Positions 5,983 to 39,804 of a stretch of 64,000 nucleotides of DNA are shown one piece after another (the stretch's first letter is position 1; every line of letters begins with the position of its first letter). A program made the position numbers and the translations under genes. Location of the stretch: NCBI GenBank assembly GCA_017991675.1, contig JAGOQB010000011.1, positions 1,236 through 65,235 on the forward strand. Reading direction: 5' to 3'. The stretch comes from Phenylobacterium sp. (GTDB taxonomy: Bacteria > Pseudomonadota > Alphaproteobacteria > Caulobacterales > Caulobacteraceae). The notes below the pieces were generated by a model, which saw only the letters and a list, made by a program, of their open reading frames with translations, did no database searches and was not told the DNA's origin.

Positions 5983-5992
5983 ACAGCTAAGC

Positions 5993-6133
5993 TGTCATCC
6001 CGGTTTCGGCGCAGCCGAATACAGGGACCCATTCGCGCCGCACCGGGGGGAATGGGGCGAGGGCGAGCCGATGCTTGTTGGCCCAGTGTTCATGGGTCCC
6101 GGTCTTTGGCCTGCGGCCAAAACCGGGATGACG
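5993..6133 (+). repeat. family A REP doublet (GTCATCCCGG...CCGGGATGAC), copy 1
   Basis: Left arm ends CCATTCGCGCC and right arm starts GTTCATGGGTCCCGG. Homologous to 17950, 27519 and 39662. Confidence 0.9.
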
Positions 6134-6155
6134 GCTTAGCTTTGCAGGGGAGGAA

Positions 6156-7193: not shown

Positions 7194-7706
7194 TCAGGCG
7201 GCGAGCACCGTTGGCCTGCGCCGCCGAACGGCGGCGCCGACGATGCCGAAGCCGGCGATCATCATCGCCCAGGTCGCCGGCTCGGGGATGGCGCTCGTCG
7301 GGGAGAAGGTGGCTAAGGTGTAACCTTCGTCCGACCAGGGGAATCCGTTTGGAACCCCATAGGCGTCGGCAGCTAGCCATCCTCCCGCGATTTCAACGTA
7401 GAAGCCCCTTTCATCGAAGGAATGGGGAACCAGCACGCCCGCGAATTCCTCGTACGGGAAGAACGCCTGGAACTCGGAGCTGGCGAGGATGGCGGCAAGC
7501 GCCTCGACGGCTTGCTCGCGAGTGGTGAAGGTCAGGTTCCCGTCGAAGGCGTCGCCGGTGAACGTGACGTCGTACTTCGCGCCGCCAATCGAAAGGTTGT
7601 GCAGGGTGACGCCGTCCAGAAGCGTGGCTGCGTTCGCCGAGGTTGAGGCGAACGCCAACATCATTGAGGCGAAGGCTCCCGCGACCGTCGACTTCAATTT
7701 GAGCAT
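7194..7706 (-). CDS. PEPxxWA-CTERM sorting domain surface protein
   Basis: Signal peptide, then C-terminal IPEPATWAMMIAGFGIVGAAVRRRR. Confidence 0.92.
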   Translation of the reverse strand: MLKLKSTVAGAFASMMLAFASTSANAATLLDGVTLHNLSIGGAKYDVTFTGDAFDGNLTFTTREQAVEALAAILASSEFQAFFPYEEFAGVLVPHSFDERGFYVEIAGGWLAADAYGVPNGFPWSDEGYTLATFSPTSAIPEPATWAMMIAGFGIVGAAVRRRRPTVLAA

Positions 7707-14789: not shown

Positions 14790-16330
14790 TGAACGGCGCC
14801 GACGCCCTGATTACCACCCTCGTCGAGAACGAGGTCACCGCCTGCTTCGCCAATCCCGGCACCAGCGAGATGCAGTTCGTCGCCGCGCTGGACCGCGAGC
14901 CGAAGATGCGGCCGGTGCTGTGCCTGTTCGAAGGCGTGGCGACCGGGGCCGCCGACGGCTATGGCCGCATCGCCGAAAAGCCGGCCTGCACCCTGCTGCA
15001 CCTGGGCCCTGGCTACGGCAACGGCCTGGCGAACCTGCACAACGCGCGGCGGGCGTTCACGCCCATCGTCAATGTGATCGGCGACCACGCCACCTATCAC
15101 CGGCAGTACGACGCGCCGCTGAACTCGGACATTCCGACCATCGTCGGGCCGAACTCGCTGTGGGTGAAGTCGGCCGACAGCCCCGACACCGTGGCGCAGC
15201 TGACCGCTGAGGCGGTGACCGCCAGCTACGGCGCGCCGGGCGGTCCGGTCAGCCTGATCCTGCCGGCCGACTCGGCCTGGCTGGAGACCGCCAACGGCGC
15301 GGTGAAGGCGAGCGTGCCGACCCGCGCGGCCCCGGCCGGCGGCGTGGTCGAGGACGTCGCCAGGAAGGTCCGCGCGGCGGCCAAACCCGTCGTGCTGCTG
15401 GGCGGGCAGGGGACCAGCGCCCAGGCCCTGGAACAGGCCGCGCGCCTGCAGGCCGCCGGCGTGCGGGTGATGGCCGACACCTTCTGCGCGCGCCAGCCGC
15501 GCGGGGCCGGCGTCTTCCAGCCGGCGCGGATGCAGTATTTCGGCGAGGCGGCGCTGGCCGACCTCGAAGGCACGGACCTGATGGTGTTCGTCGGGACGGT
15601 GACGCCGGTGGCGTTCTTCGCCTATCCCGACCGCCCCAGCGTGCTGGTCCCGGAAGGCTGCGAGACCATGACCCTGGCGCAGCGTTCGGAAGACGCGGTC
15701 GCGGGCCTGGCGGCGCTGGCCGACGCCCTGGGCGCGCCGGCGAGCGGCCCGTCGCAATCCTACAAGGTCGCGGGCGCGGCCCCGACCGGACCGTTGACCC
15801 CGCAGTCGGCGGGGGTGTCGGTGGCCCGCCACCTGCCGGAAGGCGCGATCATCTGCGACGACTCGGTGACCTCGGGCGGCGGCATCGCCGTGCCCTGCGC
15901 CACCGCCAAGGCGCATGACGTGCTGGCCCTGACCGGCGGAGCCATCGGCATCGGCGGACCGCTGGCGATCGGGGCGGCGGTCGCCGCGCCGGACCGCAAG
16001 ATCGTCTCGCTGAACGGCGACGGCTCGGCGATGTACACGGTGCAGTCGCTATGGACGATGGCGCGCGAGCAGCAGGACGTGACGGTGGTGGTGTTCGCCA
16101 ACCACTCCTACCGCATCCTCAACATCGAGATGGGCCGCACCGGCTCGGGCAATCCGGGGCCGTCGGCCAGCAAGCTGCTCGACCTGGGCGATCCGAAGAT
16201 CGACTGGGTGTCGGTGGCCAAGGGGCTGGGCGTGCCGGCGGTGCGCTGCGAGACGGCCGAAGAGTTCGACGCCGCCTTCGCCAAGGCGATGGCCGAGCCG
16301 GGGCCGAAGTTCATCGAAGCTGCGATCTAG
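14789..16330 (+). CDS. thiamine-diphosphate enzyme, acetolactate synthase large subunit-like
   Basis: FANPGTSE and GDGSAMY...N ThDP motif. Start overlaps the upstream stop (TGATG). Confidence 0.85.
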   Translation: MNGADALITTLVENEVTACFANPGTSEMQFVAALDREPKMRPVLCLFEGVATGAADGYGRIAEKPACTLLHLGPGYGNGLANLHNARRAFTPIVNVIGDHATYHRQYDAPLNSDIPTIVGPNSLWVKSADSPDTVAQLTAEAVTASYGAPGGPVSLILPADSAWLETANGAVKASVPTRAAPAGGVVEDVARKVRAAAKPVVLLGGQGTSAQALEQAARLQAAGVRVMADTFCARQPRGAGVFQPARMQYFGEAALADLEGTDLMVFVGTVTPVAFFAYPDRPSVLVPEGCETMTLAQRSEDAVAGLAALADALGAPASGPSQSYKVAGAAPTGPLTPQSAGVSVARHLPEGAIICDDSVTSGGGIAVPCATAKAHDVLALTGGAIGIGGPLAIGAAVAAPDRKIVSLNGDGSAMYTVQSLWTMAREQQDVTVVVFANHSYRILNIEMGRTGSGNPGPSASKLLDLGDPKIDWVSVAKGLGVPAVRCETAEEFDAAFAKAMAEPGPKFIEAAI

Positions 16331-16504
16331 GGCCGAACGACGGAGGCTCCCCTCGGGTCTGGTCGAGTGCTCTCGACCGGTCTCCGTCATTCGCCAGGTC
16401 CGCGCTCAGGTGGACCAGCGCTGCTGCTCAGGTGTCGGCGCGAGTGACTTTGCCATTGCCGGGCGATGTAACACGGGACGGACATCACCTCTGAGGAGAC
16501 CTGC

Positions 16505-17086
16505 ATGCGCGCCCTTCTGCTTGCACTCGCCACCATCGGCAGCTTGGCCGCTGCAGCGCCATCCGTCGCTCAGACCTTGAAGGTGAACCCAAACCTCAGC
16601 ATCGACGTCACCGGCTTTAGCGGCGATCCGAATATCCTGCCCGACCTGGTGACCCAGATTGAGGCCCGGAACGGCGGGCGAGTGGCCGCGATAGCCTTTA
16701 GCAACGTCGCTGGCGCCCCGGGTTACGCCGCCATCGTGTTGAATGGATCGGACGTCAGGTTCTGGCGGCTCGACAAGCCGACCGCCGAAGCCGTTGAACT
16801 TACCGGTGCGTCGATTCCGTCATGGATGTTGTCCTGGCGCAATCAGCGCCGCGCGGAAGCGGTGAAGGACGCCAAGATTTCGCTGGCTGACGCGATCCGT
16901 ACGGCTGAAGCCTCGAAGCGGGGCGCGCCGGCGGTCGTGGCCGGCATCGCGAGAAGCGCCTCCAACCCCACCTCGGACGTCCAGGCCTACACGGTCGGGA
17001 TCCTGAAAAACGGCCGGCTGGAGCGCGTCGCGGTGGATTCGCAATCGGGAAGGCCGATCGAGAACCCCGAGGCGCTGGATTGGTGA
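16505..17086 (+). CDS. secreted PepSY-domain protein
   Basis: Signal peptide, AKISLADAIRTA...VAVDSQSG PepSY pattern, GAGGAG RBS. Confidence 0.65.
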   Translation: MRALLLALATIGSLAAAAPSVAQTLKVNPNLSIDVTGFSGDPNILPDLVTQIEARNGGRVAAIAFSNVAGAPGYAAIVLNGSDVRFWRLDKPTAEAVELTGASIPSWMLSWRNQRRAEAVKDAKISLADAIRTAEASKRGAPAVVAGIARSASNPTSDVQAYTVGILKNGRLERVAVDSQSGRPIENPEALDW

Positions 17087-17129
17087 GGCCGGAAATGGCG
17101 CCCGGGCCTCGCCCAGCGCCGGCGGCTCG

Positions 17130-17181
17130 CCCCCTCCACCACCCTGCGGGCGGTCCCCCTCCCCCGCTGCGCAGGGGAGGA
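17130..17181. repeat. family C single arm
   Basis: CCCCCTCCACC-hairpin-GGTCCCCCTCCCCCGCTGCGCAGGGGAGGA. Confidence 0.7.
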
Positions 17182-17295
17182 AAGGGCGTTCGGGTGCTGC
17201 AACGGCGAACAGGTCTGCGCCGGGCGCGGCAGGGGGTTTTCGCCGTTCAGCTATGATCTGCTCCGATTCACATTTTTCATCACAATCGGAAATAT

Positions 17296-17336
17296 TGCGC
17301 CGCACCATTGATCTTGTGTGCGTCGCAGCATAGATA
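17296..17336 (+). promoter_or_regulatory. sigma70-like promoter overlapped by two PhaR-like boxes
   Basis: TGCGCCGCACCA 17296-17307 and TGCGTCGCAGCA 17319-17330. TTGATC-N17-TAGATA at 17308-17336. Confidence 0.55.
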
Positions 17337-17359
17337 GGCTTCAGCATTTGGAGGCGATC

Positions 17360-17485
17360 ATGCTGTTTGCTGAATACGAAAACGTCGAAGGCCAGCTGGC
17401 TTTCTACCGCGCGGTCAACGCGTTCGTGGGCAAGGTCGTGGCGCGCCTGCGCGGCGACGCCGAGCACCTGCTCTCGCACGCCTGA
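17360..17485 (+). CDS. 41-aa small protein (MLFAEYENVEGQLAFYRAVNAFVGKVVARLRGDAEHLLSHA), absent from the ORF track
   Basis: GGAGG RBS at 17350-17354, host-like GC3 codons, own promoter and terminator. Confidence 0.75.
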   Translation: MLFAEYENVEGQLAFYRAVNAFVGKVVARLRGDAEHLLSHA

Positions 17486-17508
17486 GGCGCGCCCCCCGAA
17501 CTGACGAG

Positions 17509-17544
17509 AAAGGCCCGCGGAGCGATCCGCGGGCCTTTTCGTTT
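17509..17544. terminator. bidirectional intrinsic terminator between the sORF and the GIY-YIG gene
   Basis: AAAGGCCCGCGGA-GCGA-TCCGCGGGCCTTTT. Confidence 0.85.
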
Positions 17545-17560
17545 GGGGCGTCTCGCTGTG

Positions 17561-17869
17561 TCAGACGAGTGGCGGCTGATCCGGCGTCATCATCGCCGGA
17601 TAGAGATCTCCCCATTCCGGGTTTTCCGTCTCGATCAGTCGGACCTTCCACTCCCGTCGCCAGCGCTTGAGCTGCTTTTCGAAGTGGATCGCCTCGGCGA
17701 TCTCGCCGTATCCCCGCCACCACACCAAGCGGTCGACGCCATATCGCTTGGTGAACCCGGCGATTTCCTTGGCCTTGTGCTGGATCACGCGGCTCTCAAG
17801 GCTGTTGGTCACCCCGACGTACAGCGTTCCGTGCCGCCCGCTGGCGAGGATGTAGACGAAGTAGCTCAT
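17561..17869 (-). CDS. stand-alone GIY-YIG nuclease (102 aa)
   Basis: YFVYILAS..GTLYVGVT..LESRVIQH, FTKRYGV, EAIHFEKQLKRWRREWK..LIE..NPEW.DL. GAGG RBS before ATG 17869. Confidence 0.92.
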   Translation of the reverse strand: MSYFVYILASGRHGTLYVGVTNSLESRVIQHKAKEIAGFTKRYGVDRLVWWRGYGEIAEAIHFEKQLKRWRREWKVRLIETENPEWGDLYPAMMTPDQPPLV

Positions 17870-17880
17870 CCCCGACCTCA

Positions 17881-17928
17881 GGCGCGAATGGGTCCCGGAC
17901 AAGCCCTGCGGGCTTTCCGGGATGACAC
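17881..17928 (-). repeat. family A left arm directly upstream of the GIY-YIG gene
   Basis: Minus strand reads GTGTCATCCCGG-AAAGCCC-GCA-GGGCTT-GT-CCGGGACCCATTCGCGCC, ending 11 nt before the ATG. Confidence 0.9.
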
Positions 17929-17949
17929 TCTGTGGTCAAGCTCCCGCCC

Positions 17950-18086
17950 GTGTCATCCCGGTTTCGGCGCAGCCGAAGACCGGGATCCATTCGCGCCCGG
18001 GTTCGTCGAATTGGCGAGGCGCGAGCCACTTCCTGAGCCATCCGGTGTTTATGGATCCGGTCTTGCTTCGCAAACCGGGATGACAC
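17950..18086 (+). repeat. family A REP doublet, copy 2 (extra terminal fragment GGGATGACAC at 18102-18111)
   Basis: GTGTCATCCCGG..CCGGGATCCATTCGCGCC...CATCCGGTGTTTATGGATCCGG..CCGGGATGACAC. Confidence 0.9.
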
Positions 18087-18139
18087 GGAGGGGCGCCACG
18101 GGGGATGACACTGGTGGGGCAAGCTGACAGAGCTTGGGC

Positions 18140-19525
18140 ATGAAGACGCTCATCGATCCGCGCAATGCGCTGAGCCAGGGGCTGGTTGCGTTGCGCGCCC
18201 GCTTCAAGGTCCCGGAAGGCTTTCCGCCGGAGGTGGTGGCGGCGGCGCAGGCCGCGGCGCAGCGGGCGCCGAGCGACCATGTCGACCGCACCGAGCGGCC
18301 GTTCGTGACCCTGGACCCGGCCAGCTCCACCGATCTCGACCAGGCGTTCGCGATCGAGGCCAGCGGCGCGGACCTGCTGCTGCACTACGCCATCGCCGAC
18401 GTGTCGTGGTTCGTGCGCGACGGCGACCTGCTGGACGTCGAGGCCTGGAAGCGCGGGGCGACGCTGTACCTGCCGGACGGCAAGGCCAGCCTCTATCCGC
18501 GCGAACTGAGCGAGGGCGCCGCCAGCCTGCTGCCGAGCGGGCCGCGGCCGGCCGTGGTGTTCACGGTGCGGGTCGACCCGGACGGCGAGGCGAGCCTGGA
18601 CGGGGCCGAGCGGGCGATCATCCGCAGCGTCGCCAAGCTGGGCTATGAGCGGGTGACGGCCGCCGAGCTGCCGGCCGGGTTCGCCGAGCTGGCCGAGCGG
18701 GTGCGCGCGGCCGAGGCGCGGCGCGGGGCCTCGCGCGTCGATCCGCCGGAGCAGGAGGTGGCGCGGCTGGACGACGGGCGGCTGCAGCTGCGGTTTCGGC
18801 CGCGGACGCAGGCCGAGGACCAGAACGCGGCGCTGTCGCTGGCGACCAACCTGGCGATCGCCCAGGTGCTGCTGGCCCATCGCACGGGGTTGTTCCGGGT
18901 GATGCCCGAACCTGACGCGCGGGCGGTTAAGCGCCTGCGCCAGACCGCGCGGGCATTCGGCCTGGAATGGCCGGAGATGGCCAGCCTGGCGCAGTACGAA
19001 CTGACGCTCGACCCGGGCGAGGCCAAGCAGGCGGCGTTTATGATGGCGATCCGGCGGGCCAGCACGGCGGCGTCGTACGTGCCCTATGTCGAGGGCGAGA
19101 TCCCCTGGCATGCGGCGATGGCGGCGACCTATGCGCATGCGACCGCGCCGCTGCGGCGGCTGGCCGACCGCTACGTGGTCGACACCGTGCTGGCGATCGC
19201 CAACGGCCGGCCGGCGCCGTCCGCCGCGACCGCGGCCTTCGTCAAGCTGCCCAAGGTGATGGCGCGGGCCGACAACCAGGCCGGCCAGATCGACCGCGTG
19301 GTGATCGACATGGCCGAGGCCGCGATGCTGCAGGGTCAGATCGGCGAGGCGTTCGCGGCGGTGGTCACCGACATCGACGAGCGCGGGGCGCGGATGCAGC
19401 TGTGCGAGCTGCCGGTGGTGGCGCGGGTGACGGCCCACAAGGTCGAGGTCGGCGACCGGCTGGTCGTGCGGCTGACCGCCGCCGACCCGGCCCAGGGGAC
19501 GGCGCAGTTCGAGCGGGTGGCTTAG
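18140..19525 (+). CDS. RNB-domain (RNase II/R family) ribonuclease
   Basis: FVTLDPASSTDLDQAF, YAIADV, RGATLYLPD, YAHATAPLRRLADR, C-terminal S1-like segment. Confidence 0.9.
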   Translation: MKTLIDPRNALSQGLVALRARFKVPEGFPPEVVAAAQAAAQRAPSDHVDRTERPFVTLDPASSTDLDQAFAIEASGADLLLHYAIADVSWFVRDGDLLDVEAWKRGATLYLPDGKASLYPRELSEGAASLLPSGPRPAVVFTVRVDPDGEASLDGAERAIIRSVAKLGYERVTAAELPAGFAELAERVRAAEARRGASRVDPPEQEVARLDDGRLQLRFRPRTQAEDQNAALSLATNLAIAQVLLAHRTGLFRVMPEPDARAVKRLRQTARAFGLEWPEMASLAQYELTLDPGEAKQAAFMMAIRRASTAASYVPYVEGEIPWHAAMAATYAHATAPLRRLADRYVVDTVLAIANGRPAPSAATAAFVKLPKVMARADNQAGQIDRVVIDMAEAAMLQGQIGEAFAAVVTDIDERGARMQLCELPVVARVTAHKVEVGDRLVVRLTAADPAQGTAQFERVA

Positions 19526-19534
19526 GCCCAATAG

Positions 19535-19642
19535 CGCTCATCCCGGCGAAGGCCGGGACCCAAGCAGCGCTCTGGTCATGGCTGGAGCCTTGCGGGCTTG
19601 TTTGCGATTCAGCTTGGGTCCCGGCCTTCGCCGGGATGAGCG
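19535..19642 (+). repeat. family B REP doublet, copy 1 (overlaps the LysR 3' end)
   Basis: CGCTCATCCCGGCGAAGGCCGGGACCCAAGC and its perfect inverse, with GATTC at 19606-19610. Confidence 0.9.
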
Positions 19643-20553
19643 GAGGAGGGGGAGGCCTCCAGCGCGGCGAACCGCTCGGCCAGGAAGTCGACCAGCGCGC
19701 GCACCGAGGGCATCAGGCCGCGACGGGTCGGGAACACCGCATGGATCACGCCGCTGCGCGGGGCCCAGCCGGCGGGGACTGCGACCAGCGCGCCGGTGCT
19801 GAGCGTGTCGCCCAGCATCAGGGTCGGCAGCTGGGCCACGCCGGCGCCGGCCAGGGCGGCGGCGCGCAGGGTTTCGAAATCGTCGGTGGTCAGCACCGGC
19901 TCGTGGCGCACCTCGGCCACCGCGCCGCCCGGCCCCTCCAGCCGCCAGGCGTGCTCGCCGCTGGCCGGGCCCCAGTCGAGGCTGGGCGCGCCGTGCAGGT
20001 CGGCGGGGACGACGATGTCGCCGAGCAGGGCGAGCAGGGCGGGCTGGGCGACCAGGCGCTGGGGGCTCTCGCCGAGCACCCGGTGGGCCAGGTCGCTGTC
20101 GGCCAGCGGCGGGAAGCGGACGCGCAGGGCGAGGTCGAAACGCTCGCCGACCACGTCGACATGGCGGTTGGTCGCCTCCATCTGGAGCTTCACGCGCGGA
20201 TAGCGGATCAGGAACTGGGCCAGCATCGGGGCGACCTGGGCGTGCAGCAGGGCGATGGGGCAGGCCATCCGCACGGTGCCGCACGGCTCGGAGCGTACCT
20301 GGTCGACGGCGTCCTGGGCGGCCTCGGCCTCGATCACCATGGCCCGGCAGTGGCGATAGAACTCCTCGCCGACCTCGGTGATGGCGAACTGGCGGGTGGA
20401 GCGCTGGATCAGCCGCACGCCGAGCCGCTCCTCGAGCCCTGAGATTCGCCGACTGAGCTTGGACTTGGGCACGCCGAGCGCGCGGCTGGCCGGGGCGAAG
20501 CCGCCGTGATCGATCACCTGGGCGAAGTAGTAGAGGTCGTTCAGGTCCTGCAT
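19609..20553 (-). CDS. LysR family transcriptional regulator
   Basis: DLNDLYYF..V...GGF..A..LGVPKS.LSRRI..LEERLGVRL..RSTR HTH. Divergent from pirin. Confidence 0.95.
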   Translation of the reverse strand: MQDLNDLYYFAQVIDHGGFAPASRALGVPKSKLSRRISGLEERLGVRLIQRSTRQFAITEVGEEFYRHCRAMVIEAEAAQDAVDQVRSEPCGTVRMACPIALLHAQVAPMLAQFLIRYPRVKLQMEATNRHVDVVGERFDLALRVRFPPLADSDLAHRVLGESPQRLVAQPALLALLGDIVVPADLHGAPSLDWGPASGEHAWRLEGPGGAVAEVRHEPVLTTDDFETLRAAALAGAGVAQLPTLMLGDTLSTGALVAVPAGWAPRSGVIHAVFPTRRGLMPSVRALVDFLAERFAALEASPSSAHPGEGRDPS

Positions 20554-27518: not shown

Positions 27519-27651
27519 GTGTCATCCCGGTTTGCGCAGCAAGACCGGGATCCATTCGCGGTGGGCTGGCAGGATGGGGCGGGGCCGAGCCGGGTCCTGC
27601 CCTATCCGGTGTTCATGGGTCCCGGTCTTGCTGCGCAAACCGGGATGACAC
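27519..27651 (+). repeat. family A REP doublet, copy 3
   Basis: GTGTCATCCCGGTTTGCGCAGCAAGACCGGGA and its perfect inverse, with inner CCATTCGC and TATCCGGTGTTCATGG. Confidence 0.92.
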
Positions 27652-39661: not shown

Positions 39662-39804
39662 GTGTCATCCCGGCTGGAGCGAAGCGGAAGGCCGGGATCC
39701 ATTCGCACCGTTCGCGCTGATCAGGGCGCGGATTGCGCCTTATCCTGGTCCATCCGGCGTTCATGGGTCCCGGTCTTCGGCCAAAGGCCGAAACCGGGAT
39801 GACA
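39662..39804 (+). repeat. family A REP doublet, copy 4
   Basis: GTGTCATCCCGG..CCGGGATCCATTCGC...CATCCGGCGTTCATGGGTCCCGG..CCGGGATGACA. Confidence 0.9.

Follow-up and report, generated by a model that had tools for sequence, protein, structure and literature searches.

In a 64,000-nucleotide stretch of Phenylobacterium DNA (the window), a stand-alone gene for a small GIY-YIG nuclease lies among tagged hairpin repeats (arms), many of them paired into gene-less doublets, which raises the question of whether this nuclease is the enzyme behind the repeats. A preliminary description of the window proposed that it is the cognate enzyme of a REP system without a RAYT transposase, with the doublets as its non-autonomous partners. 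The idea is not new: the pairing of nuclease and flanking hairpin repeats has been published as the Ssn/SRM system, whose authors also raised the IS200/IS605-REP analogy (Chenal et al., 2025; PMC11893778), and the locus taken alone is therefore ordinary. The spread of CGTC-REPs was posed as a question in 2013 and was still a matter of hypothesis in 2025. Added here are linkage and co-occurrence counts for the nuclease clade, the absence of arms from Y1 transposase loci, an allele series of the site, and the homology of the doublet middles.

The nuclease and its locus

Contig C12 of a genome assembly (G000) of 3.03 Mb and 70.7% completeness contains the window. Its ssn gene, read from an ATG at 17869, encodes P0001, a protein of 102 aa in which a Pfam profile search recognized PF01541 as the sole domain; no NCBIfam or PADLOC family was matched, and a defence-system reading was rejected for want of a PADLOC match. 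P0001 is 48.5% identical to an N. gonorrhoeae ORF of 94 aa with NTS repeats at its flanks (E 1e-20; residues 1-99, 97% covered), which was equated with ssnA from its size and flanks and not from the Nm 8013 protein; these values lie within the threshold for Ssn homology (E<1e-10 over >75% of length against Neisseria SsnA). The best PDB match, a UPF0213 protein (E 2e-5), was far weaker. Y6, Y17, G19, R27, E64 and N83 were invariant in all 12 rows of a gap-free alignment; both P0001 and SsnA are small single-domain proteins with Y6, Y17 and E64, the SsnA residues mutated in published work (PMC11893778), at matching positions. The P0001 clade differs in that WWR replaces WYE and HFEK replaces TREK. 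A poorly resolved quick tree, with one outgroup misplaced, left P0001, the Neisseria protein and long-branch outgroups together in an unresolved group. Judged overall, P0001 very probably belongs to the Ssn family (cd10448), with a GIY-YIG fold predicted from the Pfam match and the alignment, and it is a candidate tool: a predicted ssDNA nuclease that would act on another target.

The dN/dS values of 0.06-0.19 against six homologs (a seventh was saturated) indicate that ssn is under purifying selection. Its nearest relatives come from Phenylobacterium records. Phage carriage was rejected, as 50,697 phage records contained no match; a plasmid collection held 33 matching records, 32 of them non-mobilizable and many chromosome-sized. 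A promoter scan called none for the gene, and three RNA-run assemblies, which contain relatives, showed no coverage of ssn, with joints across the gene in two of them.

Table 1. Features of the ssn locus and gene-less doublets elsewhere in the window (window coordinates).
Feature	Position	Strand	Basis or comparison
ssn gene, 102-aa single-domain GIY-YIG nuclease P0001	17561..17869	-	Pfam match, alignment to homologs
5' arm: TGTCAT tag, bulged hairpin, CCA-TTCGCGCC tail, 11 nt ahead of ATG	17881..17927	-	
Putative 3' arm remnant: GATCAG (17581-17576), 12 nt, head TGACAC (17563-17558)	17558..17581	-	alignment to six full cassettes
Spacer, head-to-head, 5' arm to doublet	17928..17950	.	comparison with L006
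Gene-less doublet, common to sister genome G024	17951..18085 (135 bp)	.	
Old arm-head fragment, present also in genomes without doublet and gene	18102..18111	-	
Host terminator-like hairpin bordering insertion	17509..17539	.	recognised by eye, not called by scan
Gene-less doublet	5993..6133 (141 bp)	.	absent at orthologous G024 site
Gene-less doublet	27520..27650 (131 bp)	.	orthologous G024 site: no arm found, 975 nt other DNA
Gene-less doublet	39663..39804 (142 bp)	.	common to G024

The features of the locus are collected in Table 1. The upstream arm and the GAGG in the stretch separating it from the start codon were found as first described, the GAGG not being kept in the relatives at loci L007 and L008. 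On the other side the window copy has lost its arm: relative to six full cassettes, the head TGACAC overlaps and supplies the ssn stop codon, and six codons are added to the frame. We infer from this alignment that the segment is a decayed 3' arm and that the last six codons of ssn derive from that arm; the junction is identical in contigs of two runs from two studies. Because the frame and catalytic residues are intact but the 3' arm is lost, the window copy likely acts in trans. A similar spacer precedes the ortholog at L006, at another site. The fragment at 18102, counted by the preliminary description as a member of a dense arm cluster, is real and is older than the cassette, occurring without the gene in G024, G027, G040 and G200. 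A target-site duplication at the gene junction was rejected, since the shared GTGTCA more plausibly represents the decayed head of the cassette itself. Rfam gave no match within 16000-20000. A 41-codon ORF at 17360-17485 (+) has no Pfam match; it is conserved together with the upstream region in sister genomes and is covered by contigs of the relatives' RNA runs.

Arms, doublets and their link to the nuclease

The whole arm pattern matched 69 times in G000 against 0 for a reversed control, and a slightly wider pattern gave 74 arms and 29 doublets of 111-142 bp, in which the heads point outward on opposite strands. The four window doublets reported at 5993, 17950, 27519 and 39662 were recovered within two bases, and the polar layout ascribed to them extends to the genome, where 23 of the 29 doublets set a TTCGC-tailed arm opposite one of the TGAAC type. 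The tag base was T in 69/74 arms and C in 5/74; the unpaired tag and the tail were the most conserved parts, and the window's elements folded strongly (z -3.2 to -10.9). Counting a 10-mer with one mismatch gave 15 occurrences (shuffled mean 9.0; as high in 6/100 shuffles) and was rejected as a significance test, since alone it is not above chance.

The doublet middles, first described as dissimilar, turned out to be homologous, with a median pairwise identity of 53% and a clear consensus over 66 doublets (from G000 and 1.70 of the 4.29 Mb of G024, orthologous pairs included). An ATG stands 18-20 nt past the CCA in 23/66 doublets, compared with a mean of 4.5 and a maximum of 12 over 500 shuffles, and the ssn start has an offset of 19; the end of the doublet consensus resembles the DNA past the stop codon in L008. 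These two features favour an origin of the doublets by internal deletion of the cassette; as a less favoured alternative, the gene may have been captured at a pre-existing ATG. When middles were compared with the 3' end of the gene, using three shuffles and eight CDS rows of which one was in the wrong orientation, the best match fell in the Trp-Gly-Asp bin for 10/54 against 1.7 shuffled; derivation from the gene's 3' end is suggestive and was not accepted, given the GC-rich top bin and the three shuffles. The best identity between non-orthologous middles was 82% and no paralogous doublets were near-identical, so that no very recent burst is visible. Doublets moving with donor flanks were rejected, the flanks of the most similar non-orthologous doublets being unrelated.

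Several copies depart from the common form. At 5985-6141 the flanks of the window doublet prolong the inverted repeat by ~8 bp past the heads, unlike most copies. Collapsed palindromes consisting of the outer half of each arm occur at G000:C7:29663, at L257 and at the G211 site; the one at L257 has flanks in common with the full L245 cassette and probably arose from it by deletion. Along the single contig of G024 (C1), arms are dense at 0-0.65 and 3.3-4.3 Mb and sparse at 1.3-3.0 Mb, a crowding that is possibly origin-proximal.

Removal of duplicates, rows with internal stops and rows <75 aa left 108 distinct homolog loci, 32 of which form the P0001 clade at ≥64% identity and are distributed over at most 20 flank clusters. 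A GTCATCCCG(G/C) arm lay ≤250 bp away in 30 of the 32 (one miss is cut by a contig end), compared with 0.9% of random 300-bp G000 intervals. The gene had been placed in the interior of a doublet; this applies to relatives, 14/32 clade loci being full arm-gene-arm cassettes of ~410 bp, and not to the window copy. The other 76 loci had the same core (20), a CTCA tag (2), another tagged hairpin (35) or none by the detector (19). Sharing of this core among Ssn clades means that nuclease and arm do not pair one to one. Two further Ssn paralogs in G000, L002 (G000:C16) and L003 (G000:C22), each stand beside their own CTCAT-tagged arms (21 copies of the L002 type and 10 of the L003 type); L002 is a clean arm-gene-arm cassette and the L003 ortholog in G024 is frameshifted.

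Across 90 genus genomes, each at least 90% complete, at least 20 arms were present in 26/57 with an Ssn match versus 1/33 without (median 15 versus 0), and in 24/47 versus 1/11 among genomes of at least 3.8 Mb; the compared genomes are kin, and these counts overstate independence. A tight dependence is weakened by G027, with 60 arms and no small GIY-YIG, by G024, with 107 arms, 9 sites absent from G000 and only two Ssn genes, both frameshifted and of other subfamilies, and by 15 genomes with at least 20 arms that lack the P0001 clade. No Y1_Tnp was found in G000 at its 70.7% completeness; 22 of the 90 genus genomes had a match, and none of the 30 Y1 loci fetched across the genus carried the arms, so that no RAYT flanked by them was seen. 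Together with the flanking and co-occurrence counts and with the biochemistry of four Ssn homologs, which cut ssDNA only, a few bases upstream of the hairpin (PMC11893778), this supports a reading of the small GIY-YIG as the cognate enzyme without a RAYT.

Flanking SRMs accompany 71% of Ssn homologs (PMC11893778), and the window gene, flanked by tagged hairpin repeats of 20-50 nt, resembles them in the (C/T)GTCAT tag and short 3' tail of the hairpins beside the gene and in the many gene-less copies; the copies in the window genome differ from those of SsnA/NTS in being dispersed polar doublets, not large clusters. The published SRM pattern matched 0/74 arms, because the hairpin is longer and bulged, and 74/74 once the inner length was freed; the arms are thus SRM-like and not pattern-defined SRMs. 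Supplementary Data 4 of the same article lists a homolog in 7/10 Phenylobacterium genomes and an SRM fold enrichment of ~1 or less in 8/10; as the pattern misses long-hairpin arms, the reach of the Ssn family is undercounted. By sequence, the arms class as TGTC-tagged, CCA-tailed CGTC-REPs, a group described with TGTC variants, CCA tails, dimers and Neisseria copies equated with dRS3, and beside which no transposase was found (Di Nocera, 2013; PMC3733652). They share the TGTC tag, the AT stem start, the CCA tail, the mostly dimeric arrangement, the alphaproteobacterial host and the lack of a nearby tyrosine transposase. The published loops are mostly 4-5 nt (families 1-4), with long-loop exceptions noted, whereas the window's inner hairpin is longer; the main text of that article does not name Phenylobacterium and proposes no partner enzyme (PMC3733652).

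In layout the system resembles RAYT-REPIN: tagged hairpins flank the gene of an enzyme predicted to recognise ssDNA hairpins, and the unit that is dispersed is the gene-less doublet. It is not such a system, though: P0001 has no HUH/Y1 domain, the tag is TGTC and not GTAG, and the ends are ragged. A classical IS MITE was rejected on the lack of fixed ends and of target duplication and on 12-35 nt of unrelated flank. Caulobacter CIRs, as described in a review (PMC2229807), are similarly intergenic elements of ~110-140 bp with two hairpin arms and a linker in the same host family; identity with them was rejected on GANTC alone, a site that CIRs have in the loop of an arm and that occurs in 0/4 window doublets.

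Gain, loss and turnover at intergenic sites

The ssn site is flanked by a small ORF and an RNB-domain gene. Three sister genomes (G200, G040, G027) have an empty site, G024 has only the doublet (94% identical) and G211 has other repeats; the filled and empty sites sought in related strains thus exist, as alleles that are empty, doublet-only or gene-filled. Contigs from two other runs connect 17555 with 17948 and those from one connect 17546 with 18124, skipping what lies between; the run that matches the window contained no excision joint. The nearest ortholog (90% aa) lies ~9 kb away in G211, at a site that has an unrelated gene in the window, and shares the upstream spacer and the C-terminal extension with the window copy. 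Where G211 has this cassette, the window encodes a secreted-looking protein of 170 aa (7194-7706, -) with what we take to be a PEP-CTERM-like end. The direction of change at the ssn site is unpolarised, and loss of the gene in G024 is possible.

A second site, a conserved convergent junction, was followed in 30 genomes and had both flanks in 25. Two of these 25 had a cassette there, two a doublet, one a collapsed palindrome and four CCTCCCCC-type hairpins; in the rest the stop codons overlapped (5) or the junction carried short filler (9) or a large unrelated insert (2). Around the inserts lay 12-35 nt of unrelated flank, and the target was not duplicated. These alleles, with the ATG offset and the cassettes, lend indirect support to the doublets as non-autonomous partners of the nuclease.

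When G000 was compared with the portion of G024 that was fetched, 7/21 and 9/22 sites with orthologous flanks differed (27/48 and 53/75 sites had no usable ortholog), and 6/58 repeat-free gaps changed length by >20 nt in the control. For the 20 nt bordering the heads on the outside, shared sites were 58-75% identical (23 heads compared), and the figure was 86-88% past stop codons in repeat-free gaps, based on crude gene calls. Element sites are intergenic and lie directly after stop codons.

Hairpin families often differ between the sister genomes at one and the same intergenic site (G000 versus G024; L246-L257). By eye, 7/9 family-A sites found only in G024 are occupied in G000 by an element that is CTCAT-tagged or of the CCTCCCCC type. 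At G000:C7:17131 and L207 of G024, the same site holds a doublet in opposite orientations, either by inversion or by independent refill.

A proposed route of spread and its alternatives

Nuclease and arms are linked and co-occur, and ~410-bp cassettes and gene-less doublets, which share ends, are gained and lost at intergenic sites with ragged junctions. On the model of the Neisseria and Wolbachia homologs, P0001 would bind the arm solely as an ssDNA hairpin and hydrolyse upstream of the tag, the predicted ssDNA cut falling a few bases 5' of TGTCAT; with heads outward on opposite strands, the cuts would bracket the element. Hydrolysis by GIY-YIG enzymes involves no covalent intermediate, and movement would for that reason rest on host repair. 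Host recombination or microhomology repair could then cause loss, replacement or copying, would leave ragged, duplication-free junctions and would reuse old sites, and gene-less doublets would arise as internal deletions of the cassette.

The cassette changes place between sister genomes, and we give slightly better than an even chance to its spread, and that of the doublets, by predicted ssDNA cutting and host repair; the nuclease likely drives the movement of gene and hairpins. The best reading, held with modest confidence, is a selfish nick-and-repair element with gene-less derivatives. NTS-ssnA-NTS has been proposed as an IS200/IS605-like element that was later domesticated, in an article whose text presents no filled and empty sites (PMC11893778), and a literature search found no paper testing or showing DNA mobilisation by Ssn. 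More tentatively, and short of an even chance, Ssn, an enzyme of 100 residues, may be the missing transposase of the CGTC-REPs, sufficient together with host repair to copy cassette and doublets to new sites without HUH or DDE chemistry, and several nuclease-hairpin families (three Ssn subfamilies, DUF559) may replace each other at shared intergenic positions.

Ssn might instead cut arms only as a filter used by the host on incoming ssDNA, the repeats turning over by host slippage or recombination with the gene passive. We regard this as possible and rather unlikely. It accords with restriction of transforming DNA in N. meningitidis, the sole in vivo role shown for the family (PMC11893778), with ComEC in 4/4 genomes checked, with the purifying selection on ssn and with the existence of arm-rich genomes without an intact gene. 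ComEC is, however, near universal in controls (10/14), and the patchy presence, changing sites and frameshifted copies suit a mobile gene; spread by the host alone would leave the contrast of 1/33 with 26/57 genomes unexplained, as well as entry into junctions of overlapping stop codons.

Mobilisation of the doublets in trans by a RAYT, an IS200/IS605 or a DDE transposase, with ssn as cargo, is improbable. The host genome is incomplete and Y1_Tnp does occur in the genus, which leaves room for such an enzyme, but Y1_Tnp was not found in G000, the arms are absent from every Y1_Tnp locus fetched, the junctions have neither fixed ends nor target duplications, and CGTC repeats were described without an adjoining transposase (Di Nocera, 2013; PMC3733652). 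A shade less probable still is a role of the arms in RNA, as terminator or stability hairpins kept between genes, to which the nuclease has only a historical link. Strong folding and positions directly past stop codons suit that role; against it, the parts most conserved are the unpaired tag and tail, Ssn homologs do not act on RNA (PMC11893778), Rfam gave no match within 16000-20000 and the sites are freely emptied. For the selfish nick-and-repair element, the comparative series is useful support of an open hypothesis and a ready test system: the genus offers the full allele series (empty, doublet, cassette, collapsed) in harmless, Caulobacter-related hosts, which makes it testable at the bench.

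A separate observation concerns DUF559 genes, which had no match in G000 (70.7% complete) and for whose pairing with C-run/G-run hairpins a literature search found no description. Such hairpins border them at 5/10 loci (L275, L276, L281, L282 and L283), and a hairpin of this kind adjoins the ssn locus at 17130-17190 of the window.
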